DNA of 64,000 nt from Escherichia coli (GCF_022846255.1 NZ_AP025682.1); one strand, 5' to 3'. Positions 8,512 through 10,958 are shown, counted from the stretch's first letter. Made by a program: numbers and translations. The notes: generated by a model from the letters alone, not told the origin.

Positions 8512-9702
8512 TTAAGCCAGCGCCTGGGCCAGTAGCGTAATCGGATGTTCGCAGCGAAGACTTGTGGACATCTCAATCTGCCATTTGCAGGTTTCGCAGT
8601 CGGTAACCACCAGATCTGCGCCGCTTTCTTCTATCTGACGGAACAGTGGTGCGCCGATGGCTTGTGAGGTGGGGTAGTTCTCTTTTTTGAAACCGTAAGT
8701 ACCTGCAATACCGCAGCACTGGGAATCCAGCACCGTTAACTCAAGCCCCGGGATTTTACGCAACAGCTCCAGGGTGTAGAGCGTCCAGCCCATTTTTTCC
8801 ATATGGCACGGAGTGTGATAAACCACTTTTAGCGGCAGCGGTTTCAGCGGCAAGGTTTTGCCTTCGTCCAGCTTGCGCCACAGCCAGCGGGTCGCCAGTT
8901 CGATGTGATCGCGTAAGCCTTTGTTGTCGACATTCAGCACTTCCGGGTACTCGTCGCGCAGAGCAAACGTACAGGTCGAGGAGGTGGCAATCACCGGAAT
9001 GCCTTTTACTCCCACTGCTTCGCGGATCGACTCTACATTCGTAATTGCCTGTTTACGTGCTTTATCGGTAAAGCCGTTGGCGATCAGCGGTACGCCGCAG
9101 CATTTTTCTTTGCTGAGCAGTTGTACACCGGTACCCATTGCGTTGAGCACTTTAATTAAATCTTTGCCTAACTGCGGATGGTTGTAGTTAACGAAGCAGC
9201 CGTGAAAGAAAGCCACCTGGTCTTTATATTGCGCTTGTTGGGCTGCCACGCTGCGATACCAGCGACGGAACGTGCCGAAGGAGTATTTCGGTAGCGTGCG
9301 GCGATGATCGATTTTTAACGCCGCATCAAGCAGCTGTCGCACCGGTTTCAGCGAGGTAGCAGTGTTAACGATTGGTGCGAATGGCGTGGAAACGCTACCC
9401 ATCAGGTCGGTATGACTCAACACAAAATTGCGCAGTGACGGGCGTGTGGTGTCATATTTCGCCCGCGCGCGCTGGATGATATCGCCAATCTTCACATCGG
9501 ACGGGCAGGCGACTTCGCAACGTTTGCAGTTGATGCAATATTTCAGTGCCTCGTCATACAGTGCGCCATCTTTCAGACGCAGACGCTCGCCATCCGGCCC
9601 GGCTTGTTTTGGCCCCGGATATCCCGGATTCACCCGGCTCACCGGGCAGGCGGTGGTGCAGACGGTGCACTTAATGCAGTTTTCGAAGCTGGTGTCGTTC
9701 AT
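8512..9702 (-). CDS. glpC: Anaerobic glycerol-3-phosphate dehydrogenase subunit C (Fe-S), 396 aa
   Basis: Starts [21 protein letters not shown]; ATG overlaps glpB stop (ATGA); ORF-track start 9777 is an extension. Confidence 0.9.
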
Positions 9703-10958
9703 TGTTGGCCTCCTGCGCGTTGGGCAATCTGTTGAGCGGCATGCAAAGCACTGACGGCACAAACGCCGCCGCCGCATCCCTGGGCGATGGGATCAAATCC
9801 GCCCAGCACCGAACCGATGGCAAACAGGTTCTCAATGGTTTGCCCTGCCTGCGACGGGCGTAGTGCCTCATCAGTGGTTACACCGAACTGCTGCCACGGT
9901 TGCGGCGCAAAAAAATCGCCCTTATACCATTCACCCCGCGTGGCGGTTTGTAGCACATCAAGGCCGAGAATCGGCTCGCGAATGCCGTCACGTTCTGCCA
10001 CCAGTCCGCCGCTAAAGAAACTGCCGCTCGCAAGCACCGCAAATCGTGGGCGCAGCGGGATATCGGCGTGATTGCGCGTCCAGATTTCATTCACTACGCC
10101 ATTTTTACAGGTCACTTTTTTCACTTCATCGCCCGGCATCCACACGCCGCCCTGGCGCACAAACTGGCGCTGTAACTGGTTTTGCAGACGAATGCCCAGC
10201 ACGGAAGGCGGCAGCGTTGGCAAAAGCATCAATGAACAAGGTAGTTTTTCATTCAACCAATGCCACAGTTTGTCATCGGCCAGGCCGAAGCAGGCGGGCA
10301 TCAGGATCATTTCGCAGGTATTGGCGACCGGAATAAGCGCATCAAGTAACAACGGCCAGTTTTCTTCATTATCAAGGAAGCGGGCAATATTCACCGCCCG
10401 GAACTCGGTGGCGTTATTGCGCAGCACATCCAGTTCCGGCAGTTCAATTTCAGCGGTTTCAACTTTAAGGTCCAATTCGCGCAATGAAGCCGCCGCAAGA
10501 TGCGCCTGAAAATCCATCAGGCCGCTAATTCCCACTACACATATTTTCTTCGCGGGCAGCGGCCAGACAGGGACTTCTGGCGAACTTAGCCAGGTTGAGC
10601 GCAGAGTGCCTAGCGGTGTAATCCGCTGGTGAGCCAGCTCTACGCTGCCCTGCAATTGCGCACCGCTTTCAGCGATTAATGCCTGCGCCTGGCAAGCGAG
10701 ATCGAGCACGCGTTGTGGCCCGAGAAGAGTGTAAGGATGGGCAGGTGCCTGCTGACGCAAAGATTCCAGTCCACTGTGAATTTCTGTCACCGGTTGGCCA
10801 TCTGGCAGATGGCTCAGCAAATCCAGCGATCCAGATGAGAAATGGAGCGCGCTTTGACCACGAGTGACAATGGCACAGCGCAGGCCGTGTTTTTGCAGTT
10901 GCAGGCCACAGAGTAATCCGGCGAGGCCGCCGCCCATAATGACAGTATCAAAGCGCAT
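9699..10958 (-). CDS. glpB: Anaerobic glycerol-3-phosphate dehydrogenase subunit B, 419 aa
   Basis: Starts [16 protein letters not shown] (FAD fold); overlaps glpA 3' end by 11 bp. Confidence 0.9.

Follow-up and report, generated by a model that had tools for sequence, protein, structure and literature searches.

Direct genetic evidence that a downstream gene depends on translation of the gene upstream is available for the classical coupled pairs trpB-trpA, galT-galK and rplK-rplA. In these pairs, the downstream gene starts at or within the end of the upstream open reading frame, both genes belong to one operon, and the Shine-Dalgarno sequence is located within the upstream coding sequence. 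Several of the classical pairs work by unfolding of an inhibitory RNA structure, and both reinitiation and RNA unfolding have been proposed as mechanisms of coupling. For gene pairs with a stop-start spacing of -4 or -1 nt, termination-reinitiation is described as the mode of coupling (Huber et al. 2019, 2023; Brown & Wade 2025), and the E. coli pairs that Huber et al. tested by experiment were hyfH-hyfI, ydbH-ynbE and menD-menH. Coupling is most efficient at spacings of approximately -4 to +3 nt and declines with distance, faster with growing overlap; the range from -8 to +10 has been taken as predictive of reinitiation (Huber et al. 2023).

The window analyzed here, a 64,000-nt stretch of an Escherichia coli chromosome (NZ_AP025682.1), contains overlapping gene pairs that share these structural features with the classical pairs. 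Six of the eight overlaps listed in the original prediction, together with atoD/atoA and atoA/atoE, carry exactly the motifs of the published -4 and -1 pairs. The spacing of the six listed junctions falls within the -8 to +10 range for efficient coupling, whereas the two 11-nt overlaps, glpA/glpB and napF/napD (-11), lie just outside it. None of the pairs tested by Huber et al. comes from this window, and those in the window are, next to the classical pairs, candidates for coupling. The overlap phenomenon and these specific pairs are already known and published, the same K-12 pairs being present with the same distances in the supplementary table of Huber et al. (2023). A literature search for coupling at these specific pairs, including glpABC and YfaE, returned nothing usable.

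Overlapping junctions of the window

Mapping of K-12 genes onto the window identified it as E. coli chromosome equal to K-12 2.301-2.365 Mb in reverse orientation. The gene order is ais/nudI, yfaV, glpCBA, glpTQ, nrdAB-yfaE, gyrA, yfaA-P, atoBEADCS, rcsCBD, ompC, ada-alkB, mqo and napFDA, and the overlapping pairs belong to established operons of K-12. A 4-kb query around glpB found matches in 5421 of the 5426 complete E. coli genomes, with a best identity of 99.2% and mostly 95-99%. The interval to which the original prediction was attached is exactly the glpB coding sequence, which overlaps a neighboring gene at either end (Table 1). The genes glpA, glpB and glpC are adjacent and co-directional, in the same order as in K-12, and their products exceeded the cut-offs of the respective equivalog models, GlpA with 1107 bits (cut-off 425), GlpB with 906 (370) and GlpC with 766 (280). 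Family matches (NCBIfam equivalogs) ran from end to end for the genes at the junctions, with the exception of atoC, which is split by an IS4 insertion.

All eight overlaps named in the original prediction were found at the predicted sizes when read directly in the window, each of them equal to curated K-12. The list itself was incomplete, as the overlaps of atoD/atoA (-1) and atoA/atoE (-4) had been left out. With these two included, sharing of stop and start codons at spacings of -4 or -1 (ATGA, TAATG or TGATG) occurs at eight junctions of the window. The genes yfaS and yfaQ abut with zero gap. We consider it very likely that the overlaps are genuine and ordinary intra-operon junctions of the E. 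coli chromosome.

Table 1. Overlapping junctions and associated features of the window. Overlaps were read directly in the window; "yes" marks an overlap of the same size in RefSeq K-12.
Feature	Position	Strand	Sequence or size	RefSeq K-12	Remarks
glpB coding sequence	9699..10958	-	419 aa		ATG 10958-10956, TGA 9701-9699; NCBIfam NF003718 GlpB equivalog, 906 bits, residues 1-419 on profile positions 1-419; overlaps a neighbor at either end
glpB/glpC overlap	9699..9702	-	ATGA	yes	
Shine-Dalgarno of glpC	9709..9714	-	AGGAGG		Within glpB 3' end, 6 nt before ATG; duplex -10.3 kcal/mol
glpA/glpB overlap	10948..10958	-	11 nt, ATGCGCTTTGA	yes	
Shine-Dalgarno region of glpB	10966..10975	-	GGAGAAGGAG		Within glpA 3' end; AAGGAG ends 7 nt before ATG; anti-Shine-Dalgarno duplex -8.0 kcal/mol
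nrdB/yfaE overlap	16449..16449	-	1 nt, TGATG	yes	No recognizable Shine-Dalgarno before yfaE
yfaA/yfaT overlap	29933..29936	+	ATGA	yes	No recognizable Shine-Dalgarno before yfaT
atoA/atoE overlap	40133..40136	-	ATGA		
atoD/atoA overlap	40783..40783	-	1 nt, TAATG		Two CoA-transferase complex subunits
IS4 insertion	41820..43245	-	1426 bp		Inside atoC after nt 1219 of 1386; 12-bp target duplication CACCGACAGGGG at 41808-41819 and 43246-43257
atoS/atoC overlap	44461..44464	-	ATGA	yes	Downstream atoC disrupted
ada/alkB overlap	57001..57001	+	1 nt, TAATG	yes	GAGGAG upstream
napF/napD overlap	62764..62774	+	11 nt, ATGCACACTAA	yes	
napD/napA overlap	63024..63027	+	ATGA	yes	

The overlaps had been called pervasive, and in terms of spacing they are indeed non-random: of the 16 pairs with a distance between -20 and +20 nt, 8 are at -4 or -1, which is far from a uniform distribution (P = 3e-7). 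Their density, however, is typical of E. coli. Among the same-strand pairs of the window, 11 of 32 fall within -8 to +6, compared to 707 of the 2987 unidirectional pairs (24%) genome-wide, for which -4 is the commonest spacing, with -1 also among the commonest (Huber et al.). No enrichment of the window in short-distance pairs over the E. coli genome rate was detected, with either 32 pairs (P = 0.11) or 30 pairs (P = 0.077), and the idea of an overlap-rich region was discarded on the basis of this comparison.

Conservation of the two glpB junctions

The junctions on either side of glpB were compared with those of 22 other glpABC loci, whose GlpB identity ranged from 97% down to 34%, giving 23 sequences with the window; 21 of the loci were enterobacterial. 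Every one of the 23 sequences, which range from Escherichia to Cedecea and one Bacteroidia genome (34% GlpB identity), has an overlap at both junctions. An 11-nt glpA/glpB overlap is present in 19 of the 22 other loci (20 of 23 with the window included), the three exceptions being Cedecea, RIT693 and the Bacteroidia genome with 4 nt each. At the glpB/glpC junction, 17 of the other loci share 4 nt (18 of 23 with the window), three share 1 nt, and the remaining two have longer overlaps of 14 or 17 nt, a gap being found in none; the glpC starts in the 14- and 17-nt loci and in the Bacteroidia locus were inferred in this analysis. Overlap at glpB was kept in these 23 sequences through at least five to six independent length changes, which never opened it to a gap.

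These results agree with a published survey of syntenic COG pairs in 1,695 representative genomes, in which the distances of GlpA>GlpB (median -10.2, q1 -11, q3 -3.8, n = 149) and GlpB>GlpC (median -3.2, q1 -4) match the 11/4 and 4/1 states of the 23 sequences. The glp pairs were covered in 138-149 genomes of that survey, and 147 genomes give a median of -4 for the COG pair NapD>NapA. Added here over the survey are the location of the glpA stop codon in the Phe-Asp codons of glpB, the association of the -11 state with TTT and of the -4 state with TTC, and the retention of GGAG independently of reading frame.

In the window, the TGA stop codon of glpA sits within codons 3-4 of glpB (TTT GAT, Phe-Asp), and throughout the 11-nt lineages it is a TGA inside the glpB codons TTT GAT or TTT GAC. 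Phe is encoded by TTT in every one of the 20 sequences with an 11-nt overlap and by TTC in the three with a 4-nt overlap. The glpA stop is locked in the conserved Phe-Asp (TTT GAT) of the FAD-binding N-terminus of GlpB in Escherichia, Citrobacter, Enterobacter and Kluyvera, where the synonymous TTC is never used. In the eight 11-nt loci that were checked, glpA would be read on for another 41-162 codons before the following in-frame stop, and in this strain a TTT-to-TTC change at glpB codon 3, by which the TGA is lost, would lengthen GlpA by 92 codons.

The ribosome-binding motifs are conserved as well. Before glpB, S646 has GGAA and is the only one of the 21 enterobacterial loci without the motif GGAG. 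The tail of GlpA past LCGL is variable with AAGGAG kept, and in Cedecea GGAG is present although the glpA frame differs. Before glpC, it is as nucleotides that GGAGG is kept, with different residues encoded: GCA GGA GGC (A-G-G) versus GCG GAG GCC (A-E-A). Retention of the Shine-Dalgarno nucleotides despite differing frame or residues suggests that selection acts on the nucleotides of a ribosome-binding site belonging to the curated starts. Shine-Dalgarno motifs are missing from the Bacteroidia locus, which still has overlaps of 4 and 1 nt. Conserved overlap, a conserved Shine-Dalgarno sequence and unconserved alternative starts (see below) together support the starts as curated and indicate that overlap has been selected for. 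The glpB gene can be regarded as a tidy, textbook-style case of nucleotide-level selection inside a coding region, representing no new kind of biology.

The 11-nt glpA/glpB overlap could moreover be a selected geometry in its own right. In that case, the Shine-Dalgarno sequence would direct the terminating ribosome 8 nt backwards, and the GlpA:GlpB ratio set in this way would be sub-stoichiometric or exact, with a different ratio resulting from the 4-nt state of Cedecea and the Bacteroidia genome. We put this forward tentatively and regard it as improbable.

Possible translational coupling and alternative explanations

Translational coupling is plausible at these junctions. Overlapping genes have zero intergenic space, and a ribosome ending the upstream gene would sit on, or a few nucleotides from, the downstream ribosome-binding site, by which downstream initiation may be tied to upstream translation. 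This could take place by two routes. In one, reinitiation would be carried out by the terminating ribosome or its 30S subunit after capture by the Shine-Dalgarno sequence, which at the 11-nt overlaps would need a backward move of 8 nt; alternatively, passing ribosomes may hold the site unfolded for fresh 30S subunits. At glpABC, coupling is indirectly supported because both the overlap and the Shine-Dalgarno motif are conserved.

Unlike in several of the classical pairs, no conserved hairpin over the Shine-Dalgarno sequence or the AUG was detected at the glp junctions, for which consensus folds (16 and 14 orthologues) left both elements unpaired with negligible covariation. Coupling of the RNA-unfolding type accordingly received no positive support at the glp junctions, which alone were aligned. 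Promoter- or terminator-like sites were likewise absent from the glp junctions, scan counts for glpABC being at shuffle level.

Calculated Shine-Dalgarno duplexes are strong for glpC (-10.3 kcal/mol), alkB (-9.4), atoE (-9.3) and glpB (-8.0), and also for napA and atoA, and are essentially absent for yfaE (-2.2) and yfaT (-1.8). Coupling probably matters most where the Shine-Dalgarno sequence is missing, as for yfaE and yfaT, and least where a strong one permits independent initiation, as for glpC, alkB and atoE. Between overlapping and separated pairs, no significant difference was observed in either Shine-Dalgarno strength (P = 0.24) or local opening energy (P = 0.079).

The same overlaps might be a neutral by-product of compact genomes, without regulatory role, if the downstream genes were started independently by fresh 30S subunits at their own Shine-Dalgarno sequences. 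ATGA and TAATG or TGATG arise easily because the start codon supplies most of the stop codon, and a review ascribes the abundance of the -4 spacing probably to such easy evolution (Brown & Wade 2025). This explanation agrees with the genome-average density of overlaps in the window, with the fact that six of the eight listed pairs do not encode complex subunits, and with the good Shine-Dalgarno sequences of most downstream genes; at glpB and glpC, their strength would permit independent initiation, which counts against coupling. It also agrees with genome-wide data for E. coli, in which relative translation, expressed as the translation-efficiency ratio, is approximately as variable for overlapping as for non-overlapping pairs. 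The ratios of overlapping pairs are unchanged by RRF depletion, which speaks against reinitiation being the dominant mechanism in E. coli. Reporters on other E. coli pairs, on the other hand, depend strongly on distance, and yfaE and yfaT are so nearly devoid of a Shine-Dalgarno sequence that their independent initiation would be weak. Further evidence against a neutral origin comes from the glpB junctions, which stayed overlapped through the length changes described above and in the published genomes, and from the Bacteroidia locus, which kept its overlaps without Shine-Dalgarno motifs. On balance, we find a purely neutral origin rather unlikely.

It could further be argued that the overlaps arise from misannotation, with downstream genes that really start further up or further down and share no bases with their neighbors. 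In-frame alternative starts do exist upstream of glpB (8 codons, GTG at 10982), glpC (25 codons, ATG at 9777) and yfaT (9 codons), the only three genes with longer ORF extensions, and one overlap outside the list is probably such a case and not real: the 67-nt yfaT/yfaS overlap derives from K-12 pseudogene coordinates, and the PGAP start of the intact gene at 30580 leaves a 23-nt gap. For the eight listed junctions, however, the comparison with curated K-12 starts that the original prediction had proposed as its check revealed complete agreement, as both RefSeq K-12 and the independent PGAP annotation have starts identical to the chosen ones; the yfaT start in the PGAP annotation of strain A25 is also the same as in the window. 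Profile alignments begin at residues 1-3, with GlpB 1-419 and NapD 1-87 aligned to profile positions 1-419 and 1-87, respectively, and GlpC residue 3 aligned to profile position 1. In the 22 glpABC loci of other taxa, conservation does not extend to the alternative upstream starts of glpB and glpC, which are impossible in many species: that of glpB is absent in 5 of the 22 loci, and in 7 of them a stop codon two codons before the glpC ATG leaves no room for one. In the 21 enterobacterial loci, the curated starts are preceded by a Shine-Dalgarno sequence at a suitable distance. Artefact was ruled out as an explanation of the eight listed junctions by the agreement of the annotations, the profile alignments and the unconserved alternatives, and we assign it only a very small residual probability.

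The curated starts are therefore supported for the genes of the window. The suggestion that overlaps help to fix true starts against longer ORF extensions stands for glpB, glpC and yfaT, where a short overlap is a usable cue for the choice of start, but not for the other five junctions, which have no longer extension. Beyond such quality control, in which the gene starts chosen for the window were confirmed, the overlaps are of little importance.

Complex subunits and the disrupted atoC gene

The overlaps had also been considered consistent with stoichiometric co-expression of complex subunits. As far as membership in one complex is concerned, this holds for glpA/glpB and glpB/glpC, the products of which are named as subunits by the NCBIfam models and which are marked "CMPLX yes" in the table of Huber et al. 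(2023), together with atoD/atoA. It does not hold for napF/napD, napD/napA, ada/alkB, atoS/atoC, yfaA/yfaT and nrdB/yfaE, all marked "CMPLX not" in this published manual classification. These six represent chaperone and client, sensor and regulator, separate repair enzymes, an enzyme with its maintenance ferredoxin, or genes of unknown function. Complex subunits are thus encoded by two of the eight listed pairs and by three of the ten overlapping pairs in all, in line with short-distance pairs genome-wide, 30% of which encode complex subunits (4.5-fold enriched). A balance of subunits would be served only for GlpABC and AtoDA, and at the other pairs the overlap may provide co-regulation at most or be a by-product of compact gene packing. 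Overlap by itself should accordingly be treated with caution, as it is no proof of subunit stoichiometry. The pair atoD/atoA is the one further true complex pair of the window.

The element in atoC was assigned to IS4 on the basis of its length (about 1.4 kb), terminal inverted repeats, a target duplication of 11-13 bp and an IS4-family DDE transposase. It is 1426 bp long, is flanked by a 12-bp direct repeat and has imperfect terminal inverted repeats of ~18-22 nt, and its transposase matches NF033592 (IS4 family, 304 bits). None of the 5426 complete E. coli genomes contained the atoC::IS4 junction, and the element itself is annotated as IS4-like in other genomes. As the insertion splits atoC, the atoS/atoC overlap leads into a truncated gene in this strain.

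Sequence ancestry of the window

The stretch of E. coli DNA containing the overlapping junctions looks mosaic in ancestry when its parts are compared by nucleotide identity. The glpABC region (8000-12000) is 95-96% identical to K-12, and its best match among complete E. coli genomes does not exceed 99.2% identity. Over the yfaA-yfaS region (29500-31500), identity reaches 100% with strain A25 (monkey) and with NZ_CP090611 (pig). Two further genes, yfaL and ompC, are much more diverged from K-12 than the genes adjoining them, which retain 96-99% identity. Such strong divergence is usual for surface-exposed proteins. 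The features concerned are listed below.

Coordinates of the features discussed (window positions, except for L025)
Feature	Position	Strand	Description
rpnE/ISNCY-family gene	7359-8318	-	319 aa
ypaB	20126-20269	+	small gene; start codon CTG
yfaL	20693-24463		81% identity to K-12, with indels
yfaT	29933-30556		DUF1175 (PGAP name)
yfaS	30490/30580-35094	+	alpha-2-macroglobulin family, ~1500 aa
IS4	41820-43245 (41808-43257 with target duplication)		1426 bp; 12-bp target duplication
naRNA4, copy 1	49303-49379	+	REP-type, between rcsC and rcsB; Rfam match
naRNA4, copy 2	49417-49493	+	REP-type, between rcsC and rcsB; Rfam match
MicF	53154-53247	-	upstream of ompC; Rfam match
ompC	53581-54696		88% identity to K-12, with indels
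glpABC of L025	2501-3650 of L025		Bacteroidia MAG

Genes altered relative to K-12

In the atoS/atoC pair, the downstream gene is disrupted by IS4, which was inserted after nt 1219 of the 1386 nt of atoC. The remnant is a 411-aa ORF that lacks the C-terminal ~55 residues. This insertion junction was found in none of the 5426 complete E. coli genomes. The rpnE/ISNCY-family gene is 60 nt longer than its K-12 counterpart (299 aa), with an identity of only ~90%. Since CTG replaces the ATG of K-12 as its start codon, ypaB may be untranslated in this strain. The glpQ-inaA intergenic region (15289-15490) measures 202 nt as opposed to 462 nt in K-12; just 98 nt of it could be aligned to K-12, and the yfaH pseudogene remnant is missing.

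In contrast to the K-12 pseudogene, yfaS is an unbroken ORF in the window. Its start was placed at 30580 by PGAP in a 100%-identical strain, which differs from the K-12 pseudogene start; the latter would give a 67-nt overlap with yfaT. No NCBIfam model matched YfaT or YfaS at E<=1e-5, despite the family names assigned to both by PGAP. Rfam matches across the window were confined to MicF and the two naRNA4 copies.

Overlaps in a distant glpABC locus

Among the 22 loci compared with the window was a distant Bacteroidia glpABC locus (L025), in which the Shine-Dalgarno motif is absent before both glpB (-2.4 kcal/mol) and glpC (-0.4 kcal/mol). Despite this, the ATGA and TGATG overlaps are retained.
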